Shown piece after piece: positions 1 through 27,155 of a stretch of DNA of 27,155 nucleotides. The stretch spans positions 1 through 27,155 of the IMG/VR virus record IMGVR_UViG_3300020043_000557, one strand, 5' to 3'. Numbering within the stretch: position 1 is the first letter of the stretch; every line of letters starts with the position of its first letter. The notes below the pieces were generated by a model that worked only from the letters and a program-made list of their open reading frames with translations, was not told where the DNA came from and searched no databases. This stretch comes from a virus (lineage: Duplodnaviria; Caudoviricetes). Position numbers and translations under genes: made by a program.

Positions 1-60
1 GCCATGATAATTTGGAAACTAACAAAACCACAGCAAACAGCGGCTATTTACTCCGAGTAG
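1..60 (+). CDS. terL: Terminase large subunit, C-terminal fragment (partial, enters from the window edge)
   Basis: Frame +1 reads AMIIWKLTKPQQTAAIYSE*, matching the B TerL C-terminus AMVVSMLLKPQQVAAIYTE*; not in the ORF track. Confidence 0.88.
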   Translation, partial: AMIIWKLTKPQQTAAIYSE

Positions 61-76
61 TGTATAATTGCCCTCT
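57..76 (+). promoter_or_regulatory. Putative late/structural promoter, TATAAT -10 element (probable leaderless portal mRNA)
   Basis: GTAGTGTATAATTGC conserved in both segments; TATAAT at 63-68 ends 8 nt before the ATG at 77; no SD. Confidence 0.65.
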
Positions 77-1174
77 ATGGGTCTATTCACGCGTAAGCCA
101 GAAGTCATTCAAGCGCAAGAAGCTCCAAGGGTCATGTCCGACTCTTATCTTTCTTTCGGTACTTACTATCCGACACTCGTTACACGCCAGCAAGCTCTAC
201 AGGTTCCCAGCATCAAGCGATGCCGCGATTTGATTTGTGGCACGATTGCTTCAATCCCTCTAGAGTATTATAAGAAATCTACTGGCGAGCATATTGCCGC
301 TCCTAGATGGGTAGAACAGCCATCTAAGTCACAGCCAAGATTTGAGACTCTCTATTTCACCCTTGACAGCCTTCTCATGTATGGGGTCAGTTACTGGCAG
401 ATTACCGAGACCTATCTTGAAGATAATCGAATGGCCAATGCTGAATGGGTAGCAAACAGCCGCGTAACATTTAATACAGATTCAACCAATAGCTTTGTAA
501 CTGAGTATTATCTTGATGGAAAACCATTACCGATGTCAGGTCTTGGATCTCTCATTACATTTCAGAAGGATGAAGGTATTCTCGCAGTAGGTGGTAGCAC
601 AATTAAGGCAGCCCTAGACGCGCAGAATGCAGCTAGTGTTGCACTTGCCACTCCATCTGCGACTGGTTTCCTAAAAAATTCAGGTGCGGATCTCCCACCA
701 GCAGAAGTTCAAGGATTACTTGCAGCTTGGTCCTCGGCCAGAAAAAACAGGTCCACGGCATATCTCACTTCCACTTTGAATTACGAAACTATTGGATTCA
801 GCCCTAAGGACATGGGCTATACGGACGCAATCCAGAATCTCGCAACGGAATGCGCCAGACTTTGCTCGGTTGATCCATATTATGTCAGCGCTTCGATGAA
901 CACAACCATGACTTATGCGAACGTACAGGATGAAAGAAAGCAGATGGTTGCTTTTACCCTTCAGCCTTATGTTTCAGCGATTGAGGCAAGACTGAGCATG
1001 GATGACATCTCTACTTCTGGTCACTATGTCAAATTTGCCCTTGATGATTCATTCTTGAGAACAGAGCCAATGGAGCGCCTTCTCGTACTTGAGAAGATGC
1101 TTGCACTTGGCCTTATTACAACTGAACAGGCAATGGAAATGGAAGACCTCTCACCTAACGGGAACGGCAGCTAA
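77..1174 (+). CDS. Portal protein (HK97-type)
   Basis: Position after terL; motifs RCRDLICGTIASIPL, LLMYGVSYW, TMTYANVQDE..LQPYVSAIE; start moved to ATG 77 (MGLFTRK) by comparison with B. Confidence 0.9.
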   Translation: MGLFTRKPEVIQAQEAPRVMSDSYLSFGTYYPTLVTRQQALQVPSIKRCRDLICGTIASIPLEYYKKSTGEHIAAPRWVEQPSKSQPRFETLYFTLDSLLMYGVSYWQITETYLEDNRMANAEWVANSRVTFNTDSTNSFVTEYYLDGKPLPMSGLGSLITFQKDEGILAVGGSTIKAALDAQNAASVALATPSATGFLKNSGADLPPAEVQGLLAAWSSARKNRSTAYLTSTLNYETIGFSPKDMGYTDAIQNLATECARLCSVDPYYVSASMNTTMTYANVQDERKQMVAFTLQPYVSAIEARLSMDDISTSGHYVKFALDDSFLRTEPMERLLVLEKMLALGLITTEQAMEMEDLSPNGNGS

Positions 1175-2718
1175 TGGAAACTCTATACATCGAAGCATCC
1201 TCAATTGAATGCTCAGAAGAACGTCGTGAAATCTCAGGCAAGATCGTGCCTCTAGGTACTGGCGAAATTGGTCACACCAATCTCGGCGCTTATACTTTCG
1301 CAGCTAACTCAATCGAGATTGCAGATCCAACCAAGATTCGTCTTTTATCGCAACATAACATGCAGAAACCGATCGGTAAAATGATCAGCGCTGAAACTCG
1401 CGAGGATGGGATTTATGCTGTCTTTCGTTTAAGTCGTAGCAGCGCTGGTACTGACGCCCTCATCATGGCACAAGAAGGACTAGTCACAGGTCTGTCAATC
1501 GGTGCGGAGATTATCGCATCTAAGCCATCTAAGGATGGTCACACAGTCGTTTCGGCGGCTAGGCTCAAAGAAGTTTCTCTAGTAACAGTTCCCGCATTTG
1601 CGTCGAGCGAAGTATTAGAGATCGCAGCAGAGGAAGTCATCCCTGCTGTAGAAACCTCAACAGAAACAGAAAGCGAGACAGTCGTGGAAGACACAACAGT
1701 CGAAGCAACACCAGTAGAAGCCGCGGCTGTAGAAGCTGCTCGCCCTACAGTAACAGCGATGGCATACACATCACCGCGCATTAACCTCAACATCACAGCT
1801 GGCGAATACGCCAAGGCACAACTCAGCGCATCACGCGGCGACGCAGATGCACGCGAACTTGTAGCAGCTCTTTCAGTTGCAACAGTTGCTGAGAACACAG
1901 GAATGGTTCCACCTACATACCTTAAGGATGTAATTGGTATCATTGACTCATCACGTCCGTTTATTGACTCAATCGAGCGCGCAGCCCTACCTGCTTCTGG
2001 GATGAAGATTTTCACTCCTAAGCTCGGAGTACAGGCAGCAGTAGATCTAACAGCAGAAGGTGCAGAGTTTGCATCTGCTGACACAACAGTTACCTTCCAA
2101 GAGGATAATGTAGTTAAGTTCGCGGGCGCTGGCGTCCTCGATTTAGAGTTGGTAGATCGCTCTGACCCAAGCTTCCTTGACCTCTATCTCCGCGAGTTGG
2201 CTGCAAGCTACGCTCAGAAGACAGATCAGTACGCAGCGAAGATCGCAGCAGACGGATCATCTGATTCATCATCTTCAACAATCTACAAGGCTATTGCTAA
2301 GTCGATTGCTGATTCATTCGGCGTAATGCGCCAGACACCTAACAACCTTCTTGTTGCCACATCTGGCGGAAACGACAATGTGGACTTTGCAAGTCTTCTT
2401 GGAGAAGTTGATTCAACAGGTCGCCCACTATACGCAGCAGCAGCACCTCAGAATGCTAACGGCGTAATCACACAGGGATCAACAAACGGCACAGTCGCAG
2501 GACTCAACCTCGTTGTTGACCCTAACTACACAGGTGGAACATCTAACATCAAGGTAGGCCTTGTCTATCCTTCAATGGCAATGCGATTCCACGAAAGCGG
2601 AACGCTTCAAATCCGCACCAATGTTGTCTCTAACGGACAGCTTGAAATCGGAATCTACGGATACGTTGCAGTAGTCAATCGCTACCCTACAGCATTCCGC
2701 GCAGTACAAGTTGCTTAA
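1174..2718 (+). CDS. Fused prohead protease (HK97/S78-like) - acidic linker - major capsid protein
   Basis: N-terminal LLSQH, GLSIG and LKEVSLV..PAF catalytic-type motifs; E/T/A-rich linker; C-terminal HK97-fold capsid motifs (GRPLY, GTVAGLNLVVDP). Confidence 0.88.
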   Translation: METLYIEASSIECSEERREISGKIVPLGTGEIGHTNLGAYTFAANSIEIADPTKIRLLSQHNMQKPIGKMISAETREDGIYAVFRLSRSSAGTDALIMAQEGLVTGLSIGAEIIASKPSKDGHTVVSAARLKEVSLVTVPAFASSEVLEIAAEEVIPAVETSTETESETVVEDTTVEATPVEAAAVEAARPTVTAMAYTSPRINLNITAGEYAKAQLSASRGDADARELVAALSVATVAENTGMVPPTYLKDVIGIIDSSRPFIDSIERAALPASGMKIFTPKLGVQAAVDLTAEGAEFASADTTVTFQEDNVVKFAGAGVLDLELVDRSDPSFLDLYLRELAASYAQKTDQYAAKIAADGSSDSSSSTIYKAIAKSIADSFGVMRQTPNNLLVATSGGNDNVDFASLLGEVDSTGRPLYAAAAPQNANGVITQGSTNGTVAGLNLVVDPNYTGGTSNIKVGLVYPSMAMRFHESGTLQIRTNVVSNGQLEIGIYGYVAVVNRYPTAFRAVQVA

Positions 2719-2737
2719 TAAGTAACACCCTAAGTCG

Positions 2738-2773
2738 CTGGCAGGGTAGTGCCCTTCTACCCTGCCAGTCTTT
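2738..2773 (+). terminator. Post-capsid hairpin (terminator/attenuator-like), 12-bp stem with TGCCCTT loop
   Basis: CTGGCAGGGTAG-tgccctt-CTACCCTGCCAG followed by TCTTT; covarying counterpart at 23119-23151. Confidence 0.75.
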
Positions 2774-2787
2774 AGAAAGGTTAATAA

Positions 2788-3366
2788 ATGGCTCTCACGA
2801 CAGTCAGCGAGTTAAGAACCGCACTTGGAGTTGGCACGCTGTATTCAGACGCGACCCTTCAATCTGTCTGCGACGCCTCAGATAATGTTTTGCTACCTTT
2901 TATCTGGAACAATTCAACTTTTAATATTGCTCACAGCAACACAACCAACACAGGCACTCTTTACTTTGAAGCGCCAGTTTATGACACATTTTATGTGGGT
3001 CAGCAAGTAGTCGTATCTGGCAACGGATCAAAACATAACGGCTCAAAGACGATCACAGCGGTAAGCGATTATTCGATCACTTATGCCATCACAGGCAACA
3101 ACAACACAGCCGCGCCTTACCATCCAGTTAATCCTTTCGGAACAGTCGCAGGCGAAACCTATCTCGATCCTGCAACAATCCCAGCGATCCAAGAAGCATC
3201 TCTCATGGTTGCCATAACAATCTGGCAGGCAAGGCAATCCCCAAGCGGTCAATCTGTTTCTCTCGATGGATTCCAACCAAGCCCATTCACAATGTCCGCG
3301 ACACTCGTGGCCAGAGTGCGTGGCTTACTTGCGCCTTATCTTGATCCGCGTTCACAGGTGGGCTAA
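2788..3366 (+). CDS. Head-tail connector/adaptor protein with an inserted beta-rich domain
   Basis: Follows the capsid gene; N-terminal MALTTVSELRTALG and C-terminal IQEASLM..VRGLLAPY typical of gp6/gp15-like adaptors; AGAAAGG SD. Confidence 0.72.
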   Translation: MALTTVSELRTALGVGTLYSDATLQSVCDASDNVLLPFIWNNSTFNIAHSNTTNTGTLYFEAPVYDTFYVGQQVVVSGNGSKHNGSKTITAVSDYSITYAITGNNNTAAPYHPVNPFGTVAGETYLDPATIPAIQEASLMVAITIWQARQSPSGQSVSLDGFQPSPFTMSATLVARVRGLLAPYLDPRSQVG

Positions 3367-3755
3367 TGGCCGCCATCTCAACACTTCGCGCAGGCATCGC
3401 CTCAGCTCTCACAGATAACACAAAGTATTCAGTATTTAGTTTTCCACCTGCGACAGTAATCGCTAACAGCGTCATAGTCAGCCCTTCTGATCCTTATATC
3501 TCGCCGTCTAACGGATGGCATAGCACGATTTCACCAATGGCTAATTTCACAATCTCAATCATGGTTCCCTTGCTAGACAATGAAGGCAACCTCAACGGAA
3601 TTGAAGACGACATCGTTCGGGTTTTTAACCTGCTCGCTGCATCTTCATACACTTATAACGTCACAGAGGTATCGGCTCCAGCCGTACTGAATGCCGTTTC
3701 AGGTGATCTACTAACATGTAATATAAATATCTCAGTCCTAACGAGTTGGAGCTAA
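3366..3755 (+). CDS. Putative tail terminator/tail completion protein
   Basis: 129 aa just upstream of the major tail gene; only 7 differences from the B copy; function by synteny. Confidence 0.6.
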   Translation: MAAISTLRAGIASALTDNTKYSVFSFPPATVIANSVIVSPSDPYISPSNGWHSTISPMANFTISIMVPLLDNEGNLNGIEDDIVRVFNLLAASSYTYNVTEVSAPAVLNAVSGDLLTCNINISVLTSWS

Positions 3756-3756
3756 A

Positions 3757-3852
3757 ATGTCCGAGTGGGAAAAAGAGCAAGAAGCCTTCCTGAAGAAGAT
3801 CGGGCAGGTAGCACCATCTAAGCCAGTAACTACTAAGAAAGACGAGGAATAA
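3757..3852 (+). CDS. Conserved 31-aa micro-protein (MSEWEKEQEAFLKKIGQVAPSKPVTTKKDEE)
   Basis: Fills the gap between neighbouring genes; GGAG SD; B homolog differs by an in-frame 6-nt indel; below the ORF-track cutoff. Confidence 0.75.
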   Translation: MSEWEKEQEAFLKKIGQVAPSKPVTTKKDEE

Positions 3853-3856
3853 TCTC

Positions 3857-4276
3857 ATGGCTGTATTTCTAAGCAACAAGGTCGGCGTGAAGGTAAACTC
3901 TGTCGATCTTTCAGACCACGTTACCGCAGTAACACTTAACCGCGCATTTGATGAGCTAGAAGTCACCGCAATGGGTGACTCAGGCCACAAGTTTGTCAAG
4001 GGTCTTGAGGCATCATCAGTCACAATCGACTTCCTTAACGACACAGCTTCTGCAAACGTACTAGCTACATTGCAGGCAGCATGGGGAACAAACGTCACAA
4101 TCGTTCTACTCCAAGAAAAGGGAACCGCAGTATCTGCGACCAACCCTCTCTACACAATGACCTGCCTTATCAACAACACCACAGACATCAACGGCGCAGT
4201 AGGCGACCTAAGTACCCAAAGTTTGTCCTTTAATGTCTCTGGTACTATCGCAGTCACCACAACAGGCACATTCTAA
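3857..4276 (+). CDS. Major tail (tube) protein
   Basis: 139 aa with VDLSDHV..DELEVTAMGD..FVKGL tail-tube-like motif; upstream of chaperone and TMP; GAGGA SD. Confidence 0.82.
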   Translation: MAVFLSNKVGVKVNSVDLSDHVTAVTLNRAFDELEVTAMGDSGHKFVKGLEASSVTIDFLNDTASANVLATLQAAWGTNVTIVLLQEKGTAVSATNPLYTMTCLINNTTDINGAVGDLSTQSLSFNVSGTIAVTTTGTF

Positions 4277-4299
4277 GAAACTAAACAAAGGGGCACAAC

Positions 4300-4557
4300 A
4301 TGGCAAAGTTAATAGTCACAATGGCAGACGACAGCGTTACCAATATCGAGATCACACCTCGACTGGAGTACGCGTTCGAGCTATATGCTAAAAAGGGATT
4401 TCACAAAGCGTTTCGCGATGATGAAAAGCAATCAGATGTCTATTGGTTGGCATGGGAAGGCCTTCGACTAAGTGGAGTCACAGTCAAGCCATTCGGCCCA
4501 GACTTTCTCGAAACTCTAAAGAGTGTAGAGGTTGCTGAGTCAGACCCTTTGGCTTAG
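4300..4557 (+). CDS. Tail assembly chaperone (gpG-like)
   Basis: Between major tail and TMP; ends in slippery heptamer CCCTTTG (4545-4551). Confidence 0.8.
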   Translation: MAKLIVTMADDSVTNIEITPRLEYAFELYAKKGFHKAFRDDEKQSDVYWLAWEGLRLSGVTVKPFGPDFLETLKSVEVAESDPLA

Positions 4558-4724
4558 GGCGGGATAGCATCCACTACCTTATTGCTCGCTTGAGCATTGA
4601 GACGGCTATCCCACCCCAATCTTTAATAGATTTAGATTCATCTATGCTTCAGATGTTACTGAAAGCATTGAAAGACCGAGCAAAGGAGCAACAGGATGCC
4701 TACAGAAGTAAGCGGCGCTCTTGA
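4300..4724 (+). CDS. Tail assembly chaperone, -1 frameshift-extended form (gpGT-like)
   Basis: The -1 frame after C CCT TTG is open for 58 codons (FGLGRDSIHYLIARLSIETAIPP...AYRSKRRS*), has no start of its own near the beginning and is conserved in B with synonymous changes. Confidence 0.8.
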
Positions 4725-5346
4725 GGTTCGTAAAGCTCTAAAGCAATTTTCTCCTATCTTGGCTAAAGAGTCAGAAAAAGAAATACGCAATCTGCTCAAG
4801 GTAGTAGTAAGAAACGCCAGAGGATTTGTTCCTAGCGAGGCTCCGCTATCTGGCTGGGGCAACGCGGTAGGAATCTGGGAAAATCGCGTGTTTAGCAGTA
4901 GCGACATCAAGCGAGGTCTTGGATATACCACTACTCCGTCTAAGCCTAATAAAAGAGGCTTTAGATCGCTAGCTACTATCTATAACAAATCTGCTGCTGG
5001 TGCTATTTATGAAACCGCTGGCCGCAAGAATCCATTTGGTCAACCAACTCAGGCGTCCACCAAGGGCGTGTTTAGCTCTTATATTGACACCTCAAACAAG
5101 GTAAACAAATCAGCCAACCCTAACGCAGGCCGCCAGTTTATTGAGGCAATGCCGCCGCTAGTCGATAGCCAGCAGTCAAACGTGGCAGGCCGTCGTACCC
5201 GTAAAACTAAAGGCCGTTTGCTCTTTAGAGCGTGGGCAGAAGATCAAGGCAAGACTAACGCAGCCGTAATGAAGGCTATTGAGAAGTCAATGGACACAGC
5301 TCTTAAAGTCACTAAAGGCTTTAACATAGATTTCAGAGGTCGATAG
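4696..5346 (+). CDS. Basic virion morphogenesis protein, possibly HK97 gp10-like neck/tail component
   Basis: AAGGAG SD; conserved in B; V.G..E.RKAL and GRLLFRAW termini resemble gp10-like proteins; family call tentative. Confidence 0.5.
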   Translation: MPTEVSGALEVRKALKQFSPILAKESEKEIRNLLKVVVRNARGFVPSEAPLSGWGNAVGIWENRVFSSSDIKRGLGYTTTPSKPNKRGFRSLATIYNKSAAGAIYETAGRKNPFGQPTQASTKGVFSSYIDTSNKVNKSANPNAGRQFIEAMPPLVDSQQSNVAGRRTRKTKGRLLFRAWAEDQGKTNAAVMKAIEKSMDTALKVTKGFNIDFRGR

Positions 5347-7023
5347 ATGTCAGCAAACACTACTTTAGCAATCAGAATTGCCTCGATCTTTGACAACAAA
5401 GGACTTAAAGGCGCGCAAAAAGGCGTCAAGGATCTGCAAGGAACTGTTAAGAAGTTAGCAGGCGCAGCAGGCATTGGTCTATCTACCGCTGCTGTTATAA
5501 ACTTTGGCAAGGCCGCCGCTAAGGCATTTATTGCCGATGAGAAAGCCGCAAGTCGATTGGCCATGTCAGTCAAGAATCTTGGCCTAGGATTTGAGACAGT
5601 ACGCATCGAAAAATTCATTTCGGGCTTATCTGAAGCGTCGGGTGTGACCGACGACGTTCTTCGTCCGAGTATGCAGAAACTATTGCAGACCACAAATTCA
5701 GTTGCCAAGTCTCAAGAGTTACTGACTCAGGCTCTAGACATTTCACGCGGCAGCGGCATAGATTACGAAACTGTTGTTTCAGATTTGACCGCAGCCTACC
5801 TAGGTCAGACTAAAGGACTAACTAAGTATTCTTTAGGTCTTACCAAGGCTGAACTAAAGACAATGAGTTTTGCGGAAATTCAAGCTAAGCTGACTGATGA
5901 ATTTAAGGGTGCTAATGCCCAATATTTGACCACTTACGCTGGCAAGATGGAATTGCTTAACACAGCAGCAGGTGAAGCTCAAGAAACAATCGGTAAAGGT
6001 CTGGTTGACGCTCTTTCTTTATTAGCAGGACAAGGCAACACAGTTCAACCTTTAGCCGATTCCATGGCTGACTTTAGCGTTTATGTTTCCGATGCCATTG
6101 TAGGCGTTGCAGTTTTGGTTGATAAACTAAAGAAGATTCCTGGAATGGGTGAATCTAATGCTGTCAGCAAAGGCAGCTTTGCAATGTTTCCCAGCCTTGC
6201 CTCTCTGGCTATTCTCAAAAAGGGTCTTGATTATGTAAGCAAGACAGGCGCAGAATATCAAGCGCTTACTAATCCAGTTACTCAAGGTTATCTAGGTTCA
6301 ATGCCTGTTGGTATTTATCCAACAGCTGCTGAACTAGCCAAGCAAAAGCAAATGGAAAAGGACAGACTCAAGCTAGAAAAAGAACGAGCCGCCTTGCAAA
6401 AAAAGGCTAATACTGAAGCCAAGAAAAAGGCAGCACTAGATAAAGCATCCCAGACCTTAGATCTAGAAGGTATCGGAATCACCGCTGCACTAAAAGGCAA
6501 GATCAGCGAGACTGATCGGATCTCACTTGAACTACAGAAAGCCATTCTTGCAGGCAATGCAACGCTAGCGACTCAGTTATCTGATCAACTTGAAGCAGCG
6601 ATTAAGCGCAATAACGAACTTCGTCAATCTCTACTAGCGACTCCAGAAGCTCCTAATCCTTTTAGGAACTGGAAGATTCCAGCGCTTGATTATGGTGGAA
6701 ACAAATTAGGCACAGCCTTGCCGCCAAACTTTACGCCGCCTTCTTATCCAGAGCCATCACCTACGCCTCAAGGCCCTAAACCTTTTGTACCGCCAAGCAT
6801 ATCCAATGTACCTAGCGATAGTTACACCCAGTACGGCCCTCTAGGCGGCCTAGCTGCTGGAGTCATTGCTGGCGTAAATATGCAACCGCCAGTTAGCGTA
6901 ACAGTCACCCTCGATGGTAAAGAATTGACTTCAATTATTACTGATACACAGATTAACGACACTCTTTCAGGTTCTTTCAGTTCTGTTAATCGTTCAGGAT
7001 TTAAGGGAGCGGTAGCGATCTAA
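5347..7023 (+). CDS. Tape measure protein (short, 558 aa)
   Basis: Longest tail ORF; Ala/Lys/Leu-rich helical sequence; Pro-rich C-terminus with VTVTLDGKEL; follows the chaperone genes. Confidence 0.85.
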   Translation: MSANTTLAIRIASIFDNKGLKGAQKGVKDLQGTVKKLAGAAGIGLSTAAVINFGKAAAKAFIADEKAASRLAMSVKNLGLGFETVRIEKFISGLSEASGVTDDVLRPSMQKLLQTTNSVAKSQELLTQALDISRGSGIDYETVVSDLTAAYLGQTKGLTKYSLGLTKAELKTMSFAEIQAKLTDEFKGANAQYLTTYAGKMELLNTAAGEAQETIGKGLVDALSLLAGQGNTVQPLADSMADFSVYVSDAIVGVAVLVDKLKKIPGMGESNAVSKGSFAMFPSLASLAILKKGLDYVSKTGAEYQALTNPVTQGYLGSMPVGIYPTAAELAKQKQMEKDRLKLEKERAALQKKANTEAKKKAALDKASQTLDLEGIGITAALKGKISETDRISLELQKAILAGNATLATQLSDQLEAAIKRNNELRQSLLATPEAPNPFRNWKIPALDYGGNKLGTALPPNFTPPSYPEPSPTPQGPKPFVPPSISNVPSDSYTQYGPLGGLAAGVIAGVNMQPPVSVTVTLDGKELTSIITDTQINDTLSGSFSSVNRSGFKGAVAI

Positions 7024-8267: not shown

Positions 8268-8276
8268 GAGAAAATC

Positions 8277-8666
8277 ATGGCAGAAGGCTTTCCAGCGACA
8301 ACAGGCGACATCTTTACCGCCGCAGACTATAACGGCCTAGTAGCCTTTACTATCGGCGCAGCCAATACAGTCGACTATACGGCGGTAATTGCAGACGCTT
8401 ATCAGGTCTGCGAGCTTATGAACAAGGCTACGGCCATCAACTTTCTTATCCCTACCAATGCCTCTGTAGCCTTCCCTATCGGCACAGTCCTTACAGTCCT
8501 CAACATCGGCCTCGGCACTTGCACGATCAAGGCAGTCACTTCTGGCACAACTGCAGTCCTTTCGGCTGGTGCAGTACCTGCTCAACCTACCCTTGCTCAA
8601 TATAAGTCAGCAGCCTGCATCAAGACAGGCACAGATACTTGGTACGTCGTAGGTGCGATCGCCTAA
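8277..8666 (+). CDS. Tail-fibre-associated structural protein
   Basis: AGGAGA SD; IPTNASVAFPIGT..IKTGTDTWYVVG motif common in phage fibre/appendage proteins. Confidence 0.6.
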   Translation: MAEGFPATTGDIFTAADYNGLVAFTIGAANTVDYTAVIADAYQVCELMNKATAINFLIPTNASVAFPIGTVLTVLNIGLGTCTIKAVTSGTTAVLSAGAVPAQPTLAQYKSAACIKTGTDTWYVVGAIA

Positions 8667-9535: not shown

Positions 9536-9849
9536 TGGCACACTACGCATTGCTTGATGACTCTAGTATCGTCACAGAAGTTATTACTGGTATTGACGAA
9601 ACTGAACTAATTGAAGGTCTTGATCCTGAAACATGGTACGGAAATTTCAGAGGCCAAGTCTGCAAACGGACGAGTTACAACGGGAACATTCGCTACAATT
9701 ATGCAGGGATTGGTTATACCTACGATCCTATTGACGACGCATTTATAGCCCCTATTCCATGTAATCATCCAGAGTTATCACTTAACAATCTTAAGCGATG
9801 GGAGTGTGCAACCTGTGACGCGATCGCCGATCAAATGGTGGCTGAGTAA
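9535..9849 (+). CDS. Conserved phage protein accompanying the Gly-rich protein (MAHYA..KRTSYN..YAGIGYTYD..DAFIAP)
   Basis: TAATG overlap; homolog in B; function unknown, possibly a fibre chaperone. Confidence 0.7.
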   Translation: MAHYALLDDSSIVTEVITGIDETELIEGLDPETWYGNFRGQVCKRTSYNGNIRYNYAGIGYTYDPIDDAFIAPIPCNHPELSLNNLKRWECATCDAIADQMVAE

Positions 9850-17677: not shown

Positions 17678-17686
17678 GATTTTCTC

Positions 17687-18931: not shown

Positions 18932-20505
18932 CCTTCGTCTACCCTAGTTCCAAATCTTGCGGTGCGATTAGTGCCAACAAATGATCCTGATAGAGATTGG
19001 TTAGTCTGAGTCTGCGTGATAACTGCTGCTACAGCTTCTCCAGCAACCTCAACTTTGATATTGATTGGAGGTGCAGGATTGACCCCTGCGACGACGCCAG
19101 CAGGCAAGCCACCTTGTTGCCCGAATGTTGGTGGCATTGCATAAGCAGGCGGTACGAAATTAGGTACGGGCGTGCCTAGCATGTTCCCACCAAAATCTAG
19201 TTTAGGTATTGACCATTCTGAGAAAGGATTAGGCGCTTTAGGAGTGGCAAGCAAGGATGCACGCAGTTCATTGTTGCGCTTGATTGCTGTGTCTAATTGA
19301 TCAGATAACTGTGTGGCTAAGGTTGCATTGCCATCAAGAATGGCCTTCTGCAATTGTAGAGAGAGCCGATCAGTCTCGTTCAACTTACCTTTAAGCGCTG
19401 CCTCAATACCAATAGCCTCTATGTTAAGAGTCTTAGACGCCTTCTGTAAGGCTAAAGACTTCTTCTGTGTATCCAGAGTCTTCTTCTGTAATGCTGCTAA
19501 TTCTCTGGCACGCTTGGCTGCTGCCGCTTCTGCCGCTTTACGAGCTGCTTCATTTGGATCAATAAAAGTGCCGCCAAGTGCAGATGATGGATAACCGCCC
19601 ATGCCTGGAGTTGTAGTTGGAGCAAGTTTTCTTAATAAATTTAGTGCTTGCGTTATTTGATTAAGTTTTAATACTTGAGGAAAGATGTTTTTTAGATAGT
19701 AATCCATCCCTGGTAGTTCTTTTACCTTTGCAATTAAAGTTGCAAGTCCTACTGTTACATCGCTGACATAAGTTGCAAGTTCTCCCATCGAGTCAGCAAT
19801 TGGTTGTACTGTGTTACCTTCGCCAGCCAATAAACTCAATGATTCAACTAGACCTCCACCAATAATTTCTTGAGCGTTATCAGCGGCTTCTTGAAGCACG
19901 CGCATCTTTCCAGAATACGTTTCAAGCTCTGCTGTGCCAGCGCCCTTAAAGTTTGCAGATAGTTTACTTACCGCGCTATCAAAGTCTAAGGTCTTAAGTT
20001 CTGACTGAGTAAGGCCTAAGTTATATTTGCGAAGCCCTCGCGTCTGTCCCGTGTAGGCGGCGGCGAGATCCTGATTGACTGTAAGAAGATTGACGCCAGA
20101 TCCAGCGGCAATGTCTAGCGAAAGATTAAGAAGGTCTTGAGACTTCTTGGCAGAGCCCGTGGTCGTGATTAACTTCTGGAATGCCTCTCGTAATACTTCG
20201 CCTTCGTATCCGAACTTGGCAGATACCCTGTCCAGACTGGCTTCAATGCCTGGAATCTCAAAGGCAAGTCCTAAATTCTTTACTACTGTTTCTAATCGCT
20301 TGGCAGACTTCTCATTTTCAGCAAATGCTTTGGCTGCATTCTTGCCAAAGTTAATAACTGCGGCAGTCGAAAGACCTATGCCTGCTGCCCCTGCTAGTTT
20401 TTTTACGGCGCTTTGTAATTTTGCGGTGGCTTTGTCAGCCTCCTTGAGTCCCTTATTATCAAAAATCGCTGCAATGCGAATTGCTAGACTTGTATTAGCT
20501 GACAT
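18928..20505 (-). CDS. Tape measure protein (525 aa)
   Basis: Homolog of 5347-7023. Confidence 0.85.
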   Translation of the reverse strand: MSANTSLAIRIAAIFDNKGLKEADKATAKLQSAVKKLAGAAGIGLSTAAVINFGKNAAKAFAENEKSAKRLETVVKNLGLAFEIPGIEASLDRVSAKFGYEGEVLREAFQKLITTTGSAKKSQDLLNLSLDIAAGSGVNLLTVNQDLAAAYTGQTRGLRKYNLGLTQSELKTLDFDSAVSKLSANFKGAGTAELETYSGKMRVLQEAADNAQEIIGGGLVESLSLLAGEGNTVQPIADSMGELATYVSDVTVGLATLIAKVKELPGMDYYLKNIFPQVLKLNQITQALNLLRKLAPTTTPGMGGYPSSALGGTFIDPNEAARKAAEAAAAKRARELAALQKKTLDTQKKSLALQKASKTLNIEAIGIEAALKGKLNETDRLSLQLQKAILDGNATLATQLSDQLDTAIKRNNELRASLLATPKAPNPFSEWSIPKLDFGGNMLGTPVPNFVPPAYAMPPTFGQQGGLPAGVVAGVNPAPPINIKVEVAGEAVAAVITQTQTNQSLSGSFVGTNRTARFGTRVDEG

Positions 20506-21191
20506 TAGCGACCTCTGTAATCTCTATTAACGCCCTTAGTAACTCTTATGGCGGTCGTCATTGACTTCTCAATCGCTTTTAGTACGGCTGCGTTAGTCTT
20601 GCCTTGATCTTCTGCCCATGCTCTAAATAGGAGACGGCCTTTAGTCTTGCGAGTTCTACGGCCTGCCGCGCTTGATTGTTGGCTATCTACTAGCGGAGGC
20701 AATGCCTCAATAAATTGACGACCAGCATACGGGTTGGCAGATTGGCTCTTTGTTTTATCGCTACTGCGCTTCTGATATCCAGCGCGCCGAGCGGAACGTG
20801 TGCCAGCATCTGTGTAGACGTCGACTAGTGGAGCTTGTGGTCTGCCGTTTGATCCTGAAAGACGTCCAGCAGTCTCATAGATTGATCCTGCTGCACTTTT
20901 ATTAAAGATAGTCGCGATCGATCTAAATCCACGCTTGTTAGGCTTTGATGGAGCGGTGCTATAACCAAGTCCCCGCTTAATATCGCTAGAGCTGAAGACG
21001 CGATTTTCCCAGACTCCTACCGCTTTACCCCATCCTGAAAGTGGGGCTTCGCTAGGTACAAAGCCTTTAGCCTTAGTGGAAACAACTTTGAGAAGGTTTC
21101 TAATCTCCTTCTCGGTTTCTTTAGCCAGTTCAGGCTGAACTTTTTTAAGTGCCTTGCGAAGTTCAAGTGCGCCTGTTACTTCTGTAGGCAT
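20505..21191 (-). CDS. Basic virion morphogenesis protein, possibly HK97 gp10-like
   Basis: Homolog of 4696-5346 with a different central loop. Confidence 0.5.
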   Translation of the reverse strand: MPTEVTGALELRKALKKVQPELAKETEKEIRNLLKVVSTKAKGFVPSEAPLSGWGKAVGVWENRVFSSSDIKRGLGYSTAPSKPNKRGFRSIATIFNKSAAGSIYETAGRLSGSNGRPQAPLVDVYTDAGTRSARRAGYQKRSSDKTKSQSANPYAGRQFIEALPPLVDSQQSSAAGRRTRKTKGRLLFRAWAEDQGKTNAAVLKAIEKSMTTAIRVTKGVNRDYRGR

Positions 21192-21587
21192 CCTGTTGCT
21201 CCTTCGCTCGGTCTTTCAACGCTTTCAGAATCATCTGAAGCATCGATGCATCTAAATCAATTAAGTATTGTGGAGGGATAGCCGTCTCAATGCTCAAGCG
21301 AGCTATGAGATAGTGGATGCTATCCCTGCCTAGGCCAAAGGGTCAGACTCTGCAACCTCGACACTCTTTAGGGTATCGAGAAAGTCTGCACCGAATGGCT
21401 TGACTGTGACTCCACTTAGTCGAAGGCCTTCCCATGCAAGCCAATAGACATCGCTTTGCTTTTCATCATCGCGAAACGCTTTATGAAATCCCTTTTTTGC
21501 AAACAATTCGAAGGCATATTCTAAACGTGGGGTGATTTCAATCTCCGTCACGCTATCGTCTGCCATCTTTACTATTAACTTTGCCAT
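21163..21587 (-). CDS. Tail assembly chaperone, -1 frameshift-extended form (gpGT-like)
   Basis: Slippery CCCTTTG at 21342-21336; -1 frame open for 58 codons and conserved with A. Confidence 0.8.
21330..21587 (-). CDS. Tail assembly chaperone (gpG-like)
   Basis: Homolog of 4300-4557. Confidence 0.8.
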   Translation of the reverse strand: MAKLIVKMADDSVTEIEITPRLEYAFELFAKKGFHKAFRDDEKQSDVYWLAWEGLRLSGVTVKPFGADFLDTLKSVEVAESDPLA

Positions 21588-21609
21588 GCTGTGCCCCTTT
21601 GTTAGTTTT

Positions 21610-22029
21610 TTAGAATGTACCTGTTGTGGCTACTACTGTAGTACCTGATACGTTAAATGTCAGGCTCTGGACTGCAAGATCAGCAACGCTGCCGTTGATG
21701 TCTGTTGTTGAGTTGATCAAGCAGGTCATTGTGTAGAGAGGGTTAGTTGCAGAAACTGCAGTTCCCTTTTCCTGAAGTAGCACTACTGTGACGTTAGTTC
21801 CCCACGCAGCTTGCAAAGTCTGTAGGACGTTGGCTGTCGCTGTGTCATTGAGGAAGTCGATTGTGACCGATGATGCCTCAAGGCCTTTAACGAACTTGTG
21901 TCCGCCATCGCCCATCGCTGTCACTTCGAGCTCGTCGAAAGTGCGGTTAAGTGTTACTGCTGTAACGTGGTCTGAAAGATCGACTGTGTTAATCTTCACG
22001 CCGACCTTGTTATTTAGAAATACAGCCAT
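21610..22029 (-). CDS. Major tail (tube) protein
   Basis: Homolog of 3857-4276. Confidence 0.82.
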   Translation of the reverse strand: MAVFLNNKVGVKINTVDLSDHVTAVTLNRTFDELEVTAMGDGGHKFVKGLEASSVTIDFLNDTATANVLQTLQAAWGTNVTVVLLQEKGTAVSATNPLYTMTCLINSTTDINGSVADLAVQSLTFNVSGTTVVATTGTF

Positions 22030-22033
22030 GAGA

Positions 22034-22135
22034 TTATTCCTCGTCTTTCTTAGTAGTTACTGGCTTAGGTGTTGATGGTGCTACCTGCCCGATCTTGATC
22101 AGGAAGGCTTCTTGCTCTTTTTCCCACTCGGACAT
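22034..22135 (-). CDS. Conserved 33-aa micro-protein (MSEWEKEQEAFLIKIGQVAPSTPKPVTTKKDEE)
   Basis: Homolog of 3757-3852. Confidence 0.75.
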   Translation of the reverse strand: MSEWEKEQEAFLIKIGQVAPSTPKPVTTKKDEE

Positions 22136-22136
22136 T

Positions 22137-22526
22137 TTAGCTCCAACTCGTTAGGACTGAGATATTGATATTGCATGTAAGTAGATCACCCGATGCGGCA
22201 TTCAGTACGGCGGGAGCCGATACCTCTGTCACATTGTAAGTGTATGAAGATGCAGCGAGCAGGCCAAAAACCCGAACGATGTCATCTTCAATTCCATTAA
22301 GGTTGCCTTCATTATCGAGAAGGGGAACCATGATTGATATTGTGAAATTAGCCATTGGTGAGATCGATGCATGCCATCCGTTAGATGGTGAGATGTAAGG
22401 ATCGCTAGGGCTAATTATGACGCTGTTAGCAATGACAGTAGCTGGAGGGAATGAGAAGACTGAATACTTTGTATTGTCGACGAGTGCTGCTGCGATACCT
22501 GCGCGGAGTGTTGATATGGCGGCCAT
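22137..22526 (-). CDS. Putative tail terminator/tail completion protein
   Basis: Homolog of 3366-3755. Confidence 0.6.
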   Translation of the reverse strand: MAAISTLRAGIAAALVDNTKYSVFSFPPATVIANSVIISPSDPYISPSNGWHASISPMANFTISIMVPLLDNEGNLNGIEDDIVRVFGLLAASSYTYNVTEVSAPAVLNAASGDLLTCNINISVLTSWS

Positions 22527-23098
22527 TAGCCCACCATCGATCTCGGATCAAGATATGGAGCGAGCAAGCCGCGAACGCGAGCGAGCAAGGTGTTACCCAT
22601 GCGATACGGAGAAGGTGCATAGCCATCGATGCTAACGCCGCCGCTCGATGGGGCTTGGCGAGATTGCCAGATGTCAATTGAGATCATAAGAGAAGCTTCT
22701 TGGATCGCTGGGATCGTTGTGTAATCTGTGTAAGTCTCAGCTGCTGCGATACCAAATGGCTCCACTGAGTGACGTGGATTGTCGCTGGTGTGATTTGTGG
22801 TTACGTTAAATGATCGAGTATCGACGCCCGTGATTGTCTTTGTGCCGTTGAACTTGGCTCCAGCACCTGAGATCACAACCGATTGTCCTACATAAAATAC
22901 GTCAAGGATATTCTGATCAAAGTAGAGAGTGCCGACTGTGCCTACATTGCCGTGAGCAATGATGTACTGCTGGTTTTTCCATAGAAAGGGCAAGAGTACG
23001 TTATCTGCGGCATCACAGACAGACTGCAAGACTGCATCAGTATAGAGAGTTCCAACGCCAAGGGCGGTGCGAAGCTCTGCGACTGTTGTCAATGCCAT
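22526..23098 (-). CDS. Head-tail connector/adaptor protein with inserted domain
   Basis: Homolog of 2788-3366. Confidence 0.72.
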   Translation of the reverse strand: MALTTVAELRTALGVGTLYTDAVLQSVCDAADNVLLPFLWKNQQYIIAHGNVGTVGTLYFDQNILDVFYVGQSVVISGAGAKFNGTKTITGVDTRSFNVTTNHTSDNPRHSVEPFGIAAAETYTDYTTIPAIQEASLMISIDIWQSRQAPSSGGVSIDGYAPSPYRMGNTLLARVRGLLAPYLDPRSMVG

Positions 23099-23113
23099 GC
23101 TCTTATCCTTTCT

Positions 23114-23151
23114 AAAGACTGGCAGGGGTAAAAGGGCATTACCCCTGCCAG
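23114..23151 (-). terminator. Post-capsid hairpin, 13-bp stem with TGCCCTT loop
   Basis: CTGGCAGGGGTAA-tgccctt-TTACCCCTGCCAG then TCTTT on the - strand; compensatory changes relative to A. Confidence 0.75.
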
Positions 23152-23166
23152 CGACTTAAGGGTGGC

Positions 23167-24711
23167 TTACGCCTTGTTGTTCTTGAATGCGCCTGCGCCG
23201 ACCTTGGTAGCGATTGCTCCGAAGCCGTAGTAGCCGATTGTTACCTGACCCGCGGCTGTTGATTCGGCGCGGAGGCGGTAAGTTGGTGACTCGTACCATG
23301 TGTACGCATCTGGGTTAACGATGAGGATTGTTCCATCGCCATCGCCGCCGTTTGTTGGATCAACGTAAAGGTTGAGTCCAGCAACGTTACCTGTGAGTGA
23401 AGTTGGAGCAACTGCTCCGCCAGCGTTCATCGGATTTGTCGCTGTGTAAATTGGGCGTCCTGCATCGTTGAGAGACATAATGTTTGACCATTGTCCTGTT
23501 GATACGACCATGTTGCGAGCAAATGGATTTGGAAGGCCTGCTGTTGCGCCATAGACAGATGCTGATCCGCGAGCAACAATTCCGAGAAGTTCGGCTGCTG
23601 TTGGGTACGTTGCAACTGTTGTTGCATCAAGTGAAGCACCTGAAATAAGTGCAGCGTTTACTGCTGAGTTAGTTGCCTTTGCGTAAGCTGCTGCCATGTT
23701 GCGGACGAGTTCATCGAAGAATGCTGGAGATGTACGATCTAGCAATTCAACTGAGAATGTCTGCTGTCCAGCGTACTTCTGTACTGTTACTGAAAGGAAG
23801 CTTGAGTTCTGATCTGTGTCGCTGAATGCGTCGCCTTCTGGCTCGATTGCAACTGTTGGCATCTGTGTGATCTTTGGGATCTCAAATGTCATACCTGCAT
23901 CAGGAAGCACTCCACGAGAGATTGCATCGATTGATGGACGAATTGTAGTTCCGAGAGGGTTGATGATCTCAGAGAGTTGACGTGTTGGTACGAGACCAGC
24001 GTTGTCAGATGTGTCTGCCGCTGCCGCGATCCATTGACGAGCTACGTCGTCTCCGAGTGCTGCGCGGATTGTGTTCTCTGCATACTTTGCAGCTGTTACT
24101 TCAATGCGTGGCTTTGTGTAAGCCATTGCTGTTACAGCAGGGCGAGCAGCTTCAACTGCGGCAGCCTCAACTGTAGGTGTTGCTTCGACTGCTGGAGTGG
24201 TTTCCACTGTGGCTGTCTCGCTTTCTGTTGGTAGGGTTTCTTCAACGGCTTCATCTTCAGATGCCGCGATATCGGTTACGGCTGCAGACTTAAAGGCTGC
24301 TGCCTGAACCAAACTTACTTCGAGTAGGTCAGCACTCGACACATACAGAACGCCATTTTTAGGCTTTGCTGCATTGACCATAACTCCGACTGAAAGACCA
24401 GTACGAAGTTCTTCTGAGGCTTCGATGAGAGCATCTGTGCCACGACTTGACTTAGAAATCTTAAATGATGCAAAGATTCCGTCTTCTGTCTCGTTAAAAA
24501 ATTGAGCACGGCCAATTGGCTGCTTAGGATCGTGCTCTAGTAAGAGCTTCACTTTGCTTGAATCTGCGATGCTAATTGCGCCGCGCTCAAAGACAACTGC
24601 CCCAGCAGAGGTGTTTCCGACCTCGCCGTCATAAGGCACGATCTTGCCAGAGATAGTGCGCTCCGCCGCATCTGCTGTAAGTTCTGCTGAGAATGTGAGC
24701 ATCTCTTTCAT
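23167..24711 (-). CDS. Fused prohead protease - linker - major capsid protein
   Basis: LLLEH, GLSVG and LLEVSLV motifs; GRPIY and GNVAGLNLYVDP capsid motifs; strongly diverged from A. Confidence 0.88.
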   Translation of the reverse strand: MKEMLTFSAELTADAAERTISGKIVPYDGEVGNTSAGAVVFERGAISIADSSKVKLLLEHDPKQPIGRAQFFNETEDGIFASFKISKSSRGTDALIEASEELRTGLSVGVMVNAAKPKNGVLYVSSADLLEVSLVQAAAFKSAAVTDIAASEDEAVEETLPTESETATVETTPAVEATPTVEAAAVEAARPAVTAMAYTKPRIEVTAAKYAENTIRAALGDDVARQWIAAAADTSDNAGLVPTRQLSEIINPLGTTIRPSIDAISRGVLPDAGMTFEIPKITQMPTVAIEPEGDAFSDTDQNSSFLSVTVQKYAGQQTFSVELLDRTSPAFFDELVRNMAAAYAKATNSAVNAALISGASLDATTVATYPTAAELLGIVARGSASVYGATAGLPNPFARNMVVSTGQWSNIMSLNDAGRPIYTATNPMNAGGAVAPTSLTGNVAGLNLYVDPTNGGDGDGTILIVNPDAYTWYESPTYRLRAESTAAGQVTIGYYGFGAIATKVGAGAFKNNKA

Positions 24712-25829
24712 TGCATGCCTTCGCTTCCGTTAGGTGTTAGGTCTGTCATCTCCATGGCTTGCTCCTGAGTGATCAACTGGAGATCAAGTAGTTCACGAAT
24801 AATTGAAAGTTCTTTAAGTGGATCTGTGCGGAGATAATTGCTATCGAGATCAAACTTGACGATGTTGCCACGAGCTGTGATGTCATCCATTGATAGACGA
24901 TCTTCGATGGCGGATACGAAAGGTTGCAAAGATAGTGTGAGGAACTGAAGCCTCTCGTCTTGGACGTTTGCATACGTCATTGTCGTGTTCTGATCTGCTG
25001 AAACGTAATAAGGAGGGACGTTGCAAAGGCGAGCGATCTCAGTAGCAAGATTCTGAATTGCTTCGTTGTACATCATGTCTTTAGGGCTGAATCCAACTGT
25101 CTCGTAATTTAAAGTCGAGGTGAGATAGGCAGTCGAACGATTTTGACGAGCGTTCTTGAAGGCTGCAAGGAGTCCCTGGACTTCTGCTGGAGGTAGGTCT
25201 GCGCCTGTGTTCTTAAGGTAGCCAGTAGGCATTGGGGTTGCCGCTGCGATTACTGAAGCCTTCTGGATGTCCAGAGCTGCACGAATAGTTGATGTTCCAG
25301 TATTGAGAATGCCATCGCTAAGTGACTGAAATGTGATCAGTGAACCGAGGCCGTCCATTGGTACTGTCGTACCATCGATAGCGTAAGACTTAACGAATAC
25401 GTTGTCACGATCAAGTGTGGCAGTTACGCGACTATTAGCGACCCACTCGAAGCGAGATGGGCGGCCGTCTTCCTGGTAAGTCTCAACGACCTGCCAAAAG
25501 GCCTGTCCGTAGAATAGAAGTGAATCAACTGTGTAAGCAATAGTTACAGAACGTGGCTGAGAATAAGAAGGTTGATCGAGCCAAAGTGGTTTGCCTAATT
25601 TTTCGCCAGTTGATTTCTTGTATAGCTCGAGTGGGATTGTTCCAATCGTTCCCGCTAAAAGGTTTCTGCACCTGGCTAACGCAGGCACGCCCATTGCTTC
25701 TGTGCGTCCGACATAAGCGAATTGAAACGGCATCGCATAAGGCGAATACTCACCTAAGACCTGCGGTGCATATTGCGCTTCGACATTGGTCTTTGGTGTT
25801 GCACCTGTAAGGCGCGAAAGGATACCCAT
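24708..25829 (-). CDS. Portal protein (HK97-type)
   Basis: RCRNLLAGTIGTIPL, LLFYGQAFW, TMTYANVQDE; start set at MGILSRL. Confidence 0.9.
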   Translation of the reverse strand: MGILSRLTGATPKTNVEAQYAPQVLGEYSPYAMPFQFAYVGRTEAMGVPALARCRNLLAGTIGTIPLELYKKSTGEKLGKPLWLDQPSYSQPRSVTIAYTVDSLLFYGQAFWQVVETYQEDGRPSRFEWVANSRVTATLDRDNVFVKSYAIDGTTVPMDGLGSLITFQSLSDGILNTGTSTIRAALDIQKASVIAAATPMPTGYLKNTGADLPPAEVQGLLAAFKNARQNRSTAYLTSTLNYETVGFSPKDMMYNEAIQNLATEIARLCNVPPYYVSADQNTTMTYANVQDERLQFLTLSLQPFVSAIEDRLSMDDITARGNIVKFDLDSNYLRTDPLKELSIIRELLDLQLITQEQAMEMTDLTPNGSEGMQ

Positions 25830-25849
25830 AGACCGCAATTATACACTAC
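25830..25849 (-). promoter_or_regulatory. Putative late promoter, TATAAT -10 element (leaderless portal mRNA)
   Basis: GTAGTGTATAATTGC identical to A; same 8-nt spacing to the ATG. Confidence 0.65.
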
Positions 25850-25857
25850 ATGTTGTG

Positions 25858-27153
25858 CTATTCGGTGTATATAGCCGCTACCTGTTGTGGCTTCAATAGC
25901 ATTGATACAACCATTGCAAGACCGATAGGCGCTGAGATATCGCCTGCACTCTTACGCTTTACGATGCGCCATGATGAGTCATTGACTTTAGCCGCGCAGT
26001 TATTCATCTGCTGGATCAACTCGGCTTGGCCGTTATGCACTACGCGATGATTGACTAGACCATCGAGAAGGTCAGAGCAAGCCTGATAGAACTGCTGGCC
26101 TGATACGTCTTGCGTTACTTGTCCAGCATTGGCAAGGCGCTCGCTAATTGATTGCGTTGCGTACTTGTCGTAGCAGATCATCTTAGGTCGATATTGATCA
26201 GCCCATCCCTTAATGTCAGCTGCGATCTTTAAGTCATCGACCGAGACTTGGCTCTCCCACGTCTGGAGAATCCCGACGCCGATTCTTCCGTCACCCATAA
26301 TCTGACCAGCAACGAGGCTCGCATTGCGGCGAGATGGAGATACATCGAAGCCAAATACTGTATAGCCACCGATCGGAATCTGGAGCGTGGCATCGGAAGT
26401 TTCCTCAAGTACGCCATGAGGCCATGGACTCTGTAGAGAATCAATCCATTGACATAAAAGTTCAGTCCTAGTGTCTTCAATTTTGTTAGTTGCCACAGCT
26501 TCTTCAAGTGATTCCTCCGTTATCGTATGACCGAGAGCAGGATTGGCTAGCGCCCATCCGTTGCGGTCGGTGATCTTGCAGTATTGCGGTGCTGAGTATT
26601 CATAGAATCCGAAGGACTTAGGCGGTGATTCAAGGGCACGTGTTCTCAAATTATTTAGGGTTTCTGAAAATGCATCACCAGCGTTGCTACTCAAGAAGGT
26701 CTGGCTGTTAGCCCTTGCACGAGTCGTAGGGATTGCAGCTGTGTAGCCTTCCTTGCTGATCTCTCGAACTTCATCGATCCAGAGAAAGTCTGCTGTGCGT
26801 CCACGAGATGAGTCACGCGTATCTGATACCAGGTCAAGTGTTGCTCCGTTCAGAAGCTCTATGCGCTCACCGCCGTTGGCGTATCGGATCGCTTTAGTAC
26901 CAGCCTTTAAGTGTGGAGTGTTCTCGATAATCCAAGCAATCTCACGAAAGGTCATGAGGGCAGTCGCTCGATTGGAAGACATGATTAGATGCTTCATTTC
27001 GCCTCCATAGAACAGCCCCCAGATGACACGCATGCGTCCTAAATGGGACTTGCCATTCTGGCGTGCTACTAATAGCAAGCATGTCTTACGAATGTAATTG
27101 CCTTTAGCGTCAATACGCATCATGTCATCTAGAACCCACTTCTGCCACGGCAT
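25858..27153 (-). CDS. terL: Terminase large subunit (5' end probably beyond the window edge)
   Basis: PWQ adenine-binding motif, Walker A VARQNGKS, Walker B LWIDE, ANPALG, nuclease FGFDVS and DISAPIG. Confidence 0.95.
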   Translation of the reverse strand: MPWQKWVLDDMMRIDAKGNYIRKTCLLLVARQNGKSHLGRMRVIWGLFYGGEMKHLIMSSNRATALMTFREIAWIIENTPHLKAGTKAIRYANGGERIELLNGATLDLVSDTRDSSRGRTADFLWIDEVREISKEGYTAAIPTTRARANSQTFLSSNAGDAFSETLNNLRTRALESPPKSFGFYEYSAPQYCKITDRNGWALANPALGHTITEESLEEAVATNKIEDTRTELLCQWIDSLQSPWPHGVLEETSDATLQIPIGGYTVFGFDVSPSRRNASLVAGQIMGDGRIGVGILQTWESQVSVDDLKIAADIKGWADQYRPKMICYDKYATQSISERLANAGQVTQDVSGQQFYQACSDLLDGLVNHRVVHNGQAELIQQMNNCAAKVNDSSWRIVKRKSAGDISAPIGLAMVVSMLLKPQQVAAIYTE

Positions 27154-27155
27154 TA

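Follow-up and report, generated by a model that had tools for sequence, protein, structure and literature searches.

The IMG/VR record IMGVR_UViG_3300020043_000557 is a single contig of 27,155 nt, analysed here in its entirety (the window). Its genes appear to be present twice in mirror order, and the question it raises is whether a virus with a double genome exists in nature or whether two genomes were put together during DNA amplification and assembly. We conclude that the contig is very probably such an artefact.

Two mirrored arms

The mirror arrangement of the original prediction is real: arm A lies on the plus strand (1–11875) and arm B on the minus strand, up to 27155. Self-BLAST of the window returned 10 inverted blocks and no direct repeats. 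Long blocks are 74–83% identical (for example, 7023–10261 versus 18931–15711 at 79.8% and 3322–5024 versus 22570–20863 at 82.8%), and two short ones reach 91%. The duplication was said to run from terL to the early membrane gene, which is true of the order of the genes but not of their ends: A retains just 19 codons from the end of terL and 14 from the start of the membrane gene, and terL of B lacks about 40 N-terminal codons.

1..11875, plus strand: arm A, with the tail of terL, portal, protease-capsid fusion, head-tail and tail genes, lysis cassette, metallophosphoesterase, an ORF of 52–65 aa and the start of the membrane gene (ORFs, PHROGs)
1..60, plus strand: final 19 codons of the arm A terL, within which the contig starts, and the related contig L083 extends 1,463 nt upstream through full terL
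1174..2718, plus strand: A prohead protease-major capsid fusion, 514 aa (phrog_2263, E=2e-61; PF04586; 42.5% identity to the B copy)
10785..11531, plus strand: A metallophosphoesterase (phrog_221; 236/248 residues the same in B)
11835..11875, plus strand: A early membrane gene, of whose 51 codons 14 are kept (these 41 nt differ from the B copy at 4 positions; the gene goes on in relatives)
14191..27155, minus strand: arm B, with the start of the membrane gene, phosphoesterase, lysis cassette, tail and head genes, portal and terL (ORFs, PHROGs)
25858..27153, minus strand: B terminase large subunit, truncated by the contig end, which removes about 40 N-terminal codons (14 relatives extend upstream)

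The differences reported earlier for the tail terminator (7/129) and the phosphoesterase (12/248) are exact, with 122/129 and 236/248 residues identical, and the capsids are indeed strongly diverged (42.5% identity; portals 60.7%). The tails had been called near-interchangeable, which does not hold throughout, as the tape measure is 57%, the neck protein 77% and the distal tail protein 80% identical. The small lysis genes, described as non-homologous holins, do have little in common (8/24 and 17/48 aligned residues identical), although the second pair may be distantly related.

Judged by sequence, the arms are two related siphovirus-like miniphages with genomes of ∼16 kb each. Both late operons are unbroken from portal to phosphoesterase. 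Each arm type belongs to a genome of ∼15–16 kb with co-directional terL, portal, fused protease-capsid, tail and lysis genes (the related contig L058 is 15,588 nt once its 127-nt end repeat is removed), and A-like and B-like genomes are each found singly (L083; L053 and L058). Positions 1–8676 of arm A are 93.2% identical in nucleotides to L083, an independent, uninverted contig. Circular closure of the window was considered, as the contig end reads in frame into the terL tail of A, and rejected, as L083, the closest A relative, and L087 differ there; the contig reads as linear with both ends open.

The junction near the inferred genome end

The join had been predicted near 11860–11890 and could be placed within that interval.

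11868..11875, no strand: inverted junction with an 8-nt overlap fitting both partners, at least 5 nt by conserved letters alone (alignment to relatives)
11869..12114, minus strand: lysozyme/transglycosylase-like gene, broken off after 82 of 152 codons (full length in L003)

Two genes that are intact in relatives are broken here: the membrane gene, with 14/51 codons kept, and the lysozyme-like gene, with 82/152. The latter is presumably a lysozyme or transglycosylase by its motif, and a Pfam search of it gave no match. In 60 simulated blunt joins the median overlap was 0; 2/60 reached 8 nt and 4/60 reached 5 nt. From the junction to the right end inferred for the family's genomes is 442 nt, and the other partner of the join is 2.2 kb away. 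In relatives an HNH gene (PF01844) occupies the right end, 53 of 59 HNH-to-terL adjacencies carry an end motif, and the end itself is inferred from the piling up of contig ends, 28 of 55 loci stopping after HNH. The HNH gene, the C-terminal part of the lysozyme-like gene and the end motif are all missing from the window. The HNH frame extends across the inferred genome end.

The junction did not turn up in either of two contig collections, from which records nearly identical to the window may have been withheld. Its 26-mer had 0 matches in the metagenome contigs, and a loose pattern had 19 in viral contigs, none of them homologous. The 52-aa ORF of arm A, taken as bait, retrieved only two viral and two metagenome loci, all of another phage group, so that no close A-type genome spanning the junction was obtained. 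None of 24 sequencing runs contained half of the words of 9000–17000 (best 0.24). Four runs aligned to 1–17000 yielded contigs of related strains, and among the pieces listed (15 of 218 joints) none bridges the junction. One contig of run X4 tracks 11870–12622 and continues for 440 letters unlike arm A; another tracks 1–822 and has 1,457 letters upstream.

Inverted joins in related contigs

Among the matches listed, 21 of 297 related contigs are inverted, no two of them sharing a breakpoint, and they concentrate in samples 3300020042/43/44/47/50 (20/29 contigs versus 1/268 in others; Fisher p=3e-23). The count leaves out L001, L002 and L162–L182 (members of other groups of phages, or hits of a pattern search) as well as L187 (the same contig as L059). 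Overlaps are 4–14 nt, with a median of 6, in 22 of 23 measured junctions (L081 has no overlap value), compared with a median of 0 in 60 blunt simulations (p=1e-10). One partner lies <500 nt from the inferred end in 19 of 22 mapped junctions (L320 has no map position) against 12% expected, an end bias that may be inflated since loci were the best 80 of larger result lists, retrieved with near-end genes. Partners are close to each other, with a median distance of 2.1 kb (KS p=5e-6). All 23 other junctions among the matches listed are inverted and none in direct order was counted, in a test that is blind to in-register direct switches between relatives. L216 and L294 (2/297) were flagged as direct-order; in both, an additional HNH gene precedes the lysozyme-like gene, and neither was counted as a join.

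In two cases the same genome stands on both sides of the join: L055 compared with L198 (99.99–100%) and L048 compared with L035 (98.4% and 99.0%), the latter passing to another genome farther into the loop. Four contigs (L069, L075, L262 and L271) have terminal stems of 87–172 nt that are 99–100% identical, and in L059 and L084 the arms are unlike near the join (72% and 89% identity). G001 and G002 each carry two genomes head to tail, with an exact repeat of 127 nt, which shows that assemblers thread two such genomes together. What sets the five sample numbers apart could also be biological, for instance infected cells, and not preparation alone.

The single early module

Between the arms lies one early module.

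11869..14190, minus strand: zinc-ribbon protein, RusA-like/PDDEXK nuclease, phrog_11717 protein and DUF6378 (96.0% to L003)
14151..14196, minus strand: likely site, within the 3′ half of the membrane gene, at which the A-type module gives way to genome B by a second switch, between homologous sequences (mismatch profile versus L003)

Among 78 loci the module is closest to L003 (96.0%; runner-up 78.2%). This contig has an A-type promoter region (93% to A versus 71% to B) and ties the central module to the A-type promoter and membrane-gene start; by this likeness the module is likely arm A's own, folded back. Mismatches to L003 number 0–8 per 100 nt within the module (one bin has 16) and rise to 23–24 per 100 nt at 14200–14399, and an exact run of 36 nt stands at 14151–14186. 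The likeness breaks no more than ∼70 nt from the predicted loop closure.

L003 itself lacks the 65-aa ORF of A, has a B-like 5′ end of the phosphoesterase and runs on into a terL unlike that of L083. Such a mix of A-like, B-like and other parts indicates natural mosaicism in the family, and where likeness shifts close to the edge of a gene, old recombination can be the cause. The link between the module and A depends on one independent contig, L003.

Origin of the contig

Of the ways in which an artefact could have arisen, we consider a fold-back followed by a switch into a relative the probable one. An A-type single strand, its 3′ end ∼440 nt short of the right end, would have primed on the 8-nt match in its own membrane gene, ∼2.3 kb upstream, and extension by a strand-displacing polymerase would have given a hairpin with arm A as the stem and the early module as the loop. 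At loop closure the path would then have left the used stem, either in assembly or by another, homologous change of template, and entered the genome of a co-occurring relative, B, via the shared sequence 14151–14196. This course is supported by the inverted orientation of the arms, the 8-nt overlap, the two disrupted genes, the lack of an HNH gene and end motif, and the five-sample concentration. That both partners of the fold-back came from one template, <10 kb apart, is suggested here by one witness (L003) and is directly visible only in L048 and L055.

The original prediction preferred a chimera because of the broken genes at the junction, and this preference gains from the two truncated genes and from end-biased, short-overlap joins concentrated in five samples. 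It also held that the divergence of the arms excludes a fold-back, which is correct for a pure fold-back but not for one followed by a switch: L048 folds back within one genome and then passes to another, so divergent arms are no proof against fold-back, and L003 suggests the same course here.

Multiple displacement amplification (MDA) is known to produce such molecules. In the accessible text of Lasken and Stockwell 2007 (PMC1855051), >85% of MDA chimeras are inversions, primed on matches of 2–21 nt that are mostly <10 kb apart; the window resembles them in inversion, 8-nt match, partners a few kb apart and non-recurring breakpoints. It differs from those described there in that its arms are two genomes ∼80% similar, which calls for either a further switch or the joining of two molecules, and in the strong bias of the miniphage joins to one genome site; amplification of the source library is, moreover, inferred here. 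The available part of another report (PMC10945365) describes chimeras from amplification as rare and, for the most part, inverted and formed within a single template. Exonuclease-assisted hairpins were described for strand displacement on linear phage lambda DNA, where a 3′ end is cut back until it meets a short inverted match and is then elongated; as far as that account goes (PMC9484634), it shares with the course proposed for the window the inverted-repeat molecules made in this way from a 3′ end and differs in the use of a T7 replisome, one template and initiation at a nick.

A single-step chimera between two molecules, in which the 3′ end of a B-type strand, close to its right end, used the 8-nt match to prime on A-type DNA during amplification, would be an artefact too, and we regard it as rather unlikely. 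The early module would then be B's, and its likeness to L003 would reflect natural mosaicism, which the mosaic family allows. One event would suffice, the overlap, end bias and sample concentration fit equally well, and the dissimilar arms of L059 and L084 are in its favour. However, joins between molecules are expected to be direct as often as inverted and to have no distance bias (58 direct and 69 inverted in the part of PMC1855051 consulted), whereas all 23 seen are inverted with partners near each other. The same genome on both sides of L048 and L055 and the break of L003 likeness so close to loop closure also speak against it.

It is improbable that the contig represents a real dead-end molecule of infected cells, in which a resected end pairs with a short matching stretch, either in the same DNA or in that of a co-infecting phage, and a predicted strand-annealing protein and resolvase make an inverted dimer that is neither packaged nor inherited. 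The centre does encode a RusA-like nuclease (phrog_244, E=4e-14) and the phrog_11717 protein, which we take to be annealing-protein-like. Joins at short matches near ends are also an outcome of phage end recombination by lambda Red-type systems, and would be expected on this account as well. Yet such molecules would be rare and varied rather than dominating an assembly, and 20/29 versus 1/268 contigs points to preparation. We likewise give little credence to a broader version, that co-infecting miniphages fuse near their ends at 4–14 nt matches into two-capsid, back-to-back dimers that feed module shuffling, five samples having been caught mid-infection. Were the joins real in unamplified cell DNA, they would be a direct exchange route between co-infecting miniphages.

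A heritable double-genome phage of ∼29 kb that encodes two head types and can invert an early module common to both, which the original prediction had also entertained, is hardly credible: its late operons are unbroken and full terL genes may lie beyond the open contig ends, but the join breaks two genes, the HNH gene and right end are missing, neither the 26-mer (0 metagenome contigs) nor the pattern (0/19 homologous) found the junction again, each arm type also exists as a genome on its own, the inverted contigs all differ in breakpoint, arm-to-arm inversion would not yield the non-homologous join, and no site-specific recombinase or invertase was found among the ORFs scanned (30 against PHROGs, 19 against Pfam).

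With amplification and assembly as the favoured source, the contig most likely has no biological weight, and its value is in quality control. About two-thirds (20/29) of the family contigs in five IMG/VR sample numbers, among the matches listed, carry inverted joins, and completeness is given as 100% for one inverted contig (G004) and for three contigs that are head-to-tail doubles. Screening of double-length miniphage records should precede any claim on genome size, gene order or 'two capsids'. No paper on double or inverted miniphage genomes was found in the literature searched.

Kinship of the family

A blastn search of 9000–16900 against 50,697 phage records gave one match only, unrelated and covering 2%. 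Cluster AN Arthrobacter phages (Decurrovirus) have 15.5-kb genomes with 11-base 3′ ends, according to the portion of PMC5513430 available, and with their member KT355471 the family shares genome size, the order terminase, portal, fused protease/capsid, tail and lysis, and HNH as the last gene. Capsid identity is 43.7% over just 28% of the protein, G+C is 47% here versus 60%, and the early genes are other ones; by sequence comparison cluster AN is a distant look-alike and not the same genus. Freshwater actinobacterial miniphages (Kavagutti et al. 2019, PMC6802176) are, in the accessible part of that study, very small tailed phages from freshwater metagenomes, with genomes from 13–14 kb and hosts assigned largely by whiB. 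The window, of freshwater origin as well, is likened to them by description and unlike them has no WhiB among the proteins scanned (30 with PHROGs, 19 with Pfam), in a stretch without the right-end genes. Capsid relatives (44–54%) were found in five genome contigs, small contigs in bins of unrelated phyla; these were rejected as host evidence and taken as binned phage.

Organization of the window and its relatives

The window, an entire virus record of 27,155 nt, is very probably an artefact. ORF calls and PHROGs profiles place two late operons in mirror order, with only one early module sited between them:

Arm A: 1–11875, + strand, tail of terL through to the phosphoesterase gene and a short ORF
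Centre: 11869–14190, − strand, early module
Arm B: to 27155, − strand, terL and the same genes as arm A

Self-comparison gives long inverted blocks of 74–83% identity. Protein identity is lowest for the capsid (42.5%) and tape measure (57%) and highest, at ∼95%, for the tail terminator (122/129) and phosphoesterase (236/248), so the 7 and 12 differences counted in the original prediction are correct. Both window ends lie inside terL; circular closure was checked and rejected. Two small lysis genes are swapped between the arms (10261–10553 versus 15376–15710) while their neighbours are still 72–90% identical, and the second small-lysis-gene pair has a similar C-terminal stretch in common. In arm A only, the promoter region and the membrane gene are separated by an inserted ORF of 52–65 aa (11638–11835); a family search gave no match for it, and its relatives are in the miniphage contig L046 (57%) and an unrelated phage group (L001, L002, L181 and L182; 65–67%).

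IMG/VR was scanned with four window proteins, taking the best 80 loci each of 100 to ∼600 confirmed matches, which left 297 contigs after duplicate removal. Uninverted relatives measure ∼15–16.6 kb, with all genes in one direction: terL, portal, protease-capsid, tail, lysis, phosphoesterase, membrane gene, early genes, lysozyme-like gene and HNH. The label 'lysozyme-like', and 'annealing-protein-like' for the phrog_11717 protein of the centre, are our presumptions from motifs. Twelve contigs terminate 454 nt beyond residue 82 of the lysozyme-like gene, just past HNH, 28 of 55 loci terminate on identical letters after HNH, and many contigs begin ∼200 nt upstream of terL; because of this pile-up we infer a fixed genome end just after HNH. 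In a run labelled freshwater metagenome, every one of the 30 bins of window positions 1–17000 has related contigs.

In all 53 loci with the end motif (L003:3478–3798 and 52 others) the HNH frame overruns the putative end by 65–98 nt and stops at or inside the terL frame start, so a distinct small terminase gene does not fit there. Should this end be a genuine cos site, circularisation would be needed to complete the HNH gene, whose tail may then serve in place of a small terminase; otherwise the contig ends would have some other cause. The closest cultured phages by capsid, cluster AN Arthrobacter phages, yet with 43.7% identity over just 28% of the protein, also have a terminal HNH; PMC5513430 gives them 15.5 kb and 11-base 3′ ends.

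The junction and inverted joins in related contigs

At 11868–11875 two oppositely oriented genes abut, the membrane gene of arm A at codon 14 of 51 and the centre's lysozyme-like gene at codon 82 of 152; 8 nt are compatible with both partners. The break falls 442 nt before the putative right end, so the window lacks HNH, the end motif and the remainder of the lysozyme-like gene. A contig of sequencing run X4 tracks the centre as far as 11870 and then continues for 440 letters that do not match arm A, the length expected for the natural genome end; another X4 contig extends leftward past position 1 by 1,457 nt.

Inverted joins occur in 21 of the 297 contigs (23 junctions), and no direct-order joins were found among them by the test used. 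Five sample numbers (3300020042, 3300020043, 3300020044, 3300020047 and 3300020050) account for 20 of these 21 contigs, 20/29 there versus 1/268 elsewhere (p = 3e–23); further viral contigs from the same samples may also be affected. Two of their contigs, L046 and L085, carry two inverted joins each. Breakpoints of the inverted contigs all differ from one another. Overlap is 4–14 nt in the 22 measurable junctions; for 60 simulated blunt joins under identical scoring the median is 0 (p = 1e–10). One partner lies ≤500 nt from the putative genome end in 19 of 22 mapped junctions, and the other usually sits close to that end as well (median distance 2.1 kb). The window agrees with this set in every respect.

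According to Lasken and Stockwell (PMC1855051), amplification chimeras are mostly inversions primed on 2–21 nt within 10 kb; on linear phage DNA, PMC9484634 describes 3′ ends that are shortened back to a brief inverted match and extended from there. Judged from contig sequence, the window probably works like both. PMC10945365 found such chimeras to be rare among reads, which by itself does not explain chimeras in two thirds of the five-sample contigs; early amplification from little template would.

Probable fold-back and its alternatives

The artefact probably arose in two steps, with the early module of A folding back from the junction to form a hairpin and the contig passing into genome B at ∼14190, near the point where the hairpin would close. 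Four contigs carry a terminal inverted stem of 87–172 nt at 99–100% identity, as pure fold-back would leave an assembler. One contig, L055, is the L198 genome throughout, folded on itself (99.99–100%). The arms of L048 are just 83–86% alike, yet the L035 genome stands on both sides of its junction (98.4% and 99.0%), and farther into the loop a different genome follows. In the window, the related contig L003 matches the central module at 96.0% (next best of 78 loci, 78.2%), is the best match of A's promoter region (93%, versus 71% to B) and has an A-like membrane-gene start; its likeness falls at ∼14190 after a 36-nt exact run, within ∼70 nt of the closing point of a hairpin from the junction. 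Since L003 joins the centre to an A-type start and likeness drops at that point, the centre probably represents the early module of A itself, with L003 as single witness. Against this, L003 is without A's short ORF, its phosphoesterase 5′ end follows B, its terL is of a third kind, and natural mosaic borders also lie near gene borders. Within the early module, a 52-aa ORF lies in an insert of 142 nt (13688–13829) that is common to L003 and skipped in contigs of runs X3 and X6, where 8 letters fit either side.

A one-step join between molecules, with a B-type 3′ end primed on an A-type strand, is a less probable route to the artefact. In that case the early module would be B's; between-molecule joins are direct and inverted equally in PMC1855051. 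A real dead-end recombination product is improbable, and a heritable double genome is barely credible. The window junction has 0 matches in metagenome contigs and none of 19 loose pattern matches in viral contigs is homologous, though both collections as searched may lack records very near the window. The literature, supplements aside, yielded no report of double miniphage genomes.

Three head-to-tail records, all listed as 100% complete, each hold two different miniphages: G001 (L053; 31,089 nt), G002 (L011; 30,281 nt) and G003 (L079; 32,321 nt). Since these exist, assemblers pass between such genomes. The two genomes are ∼75–85% alike in G001 and G003 and less so in G002; the first 127 nt of G001 and G002 recur exactly at mid-contig, so these two are likely figure-of-eight assemblies. 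Some relatives also have tandemly duplicated major tail protein genes (L306:566–1397, L001:15192–15994 and L002:1155–1939).
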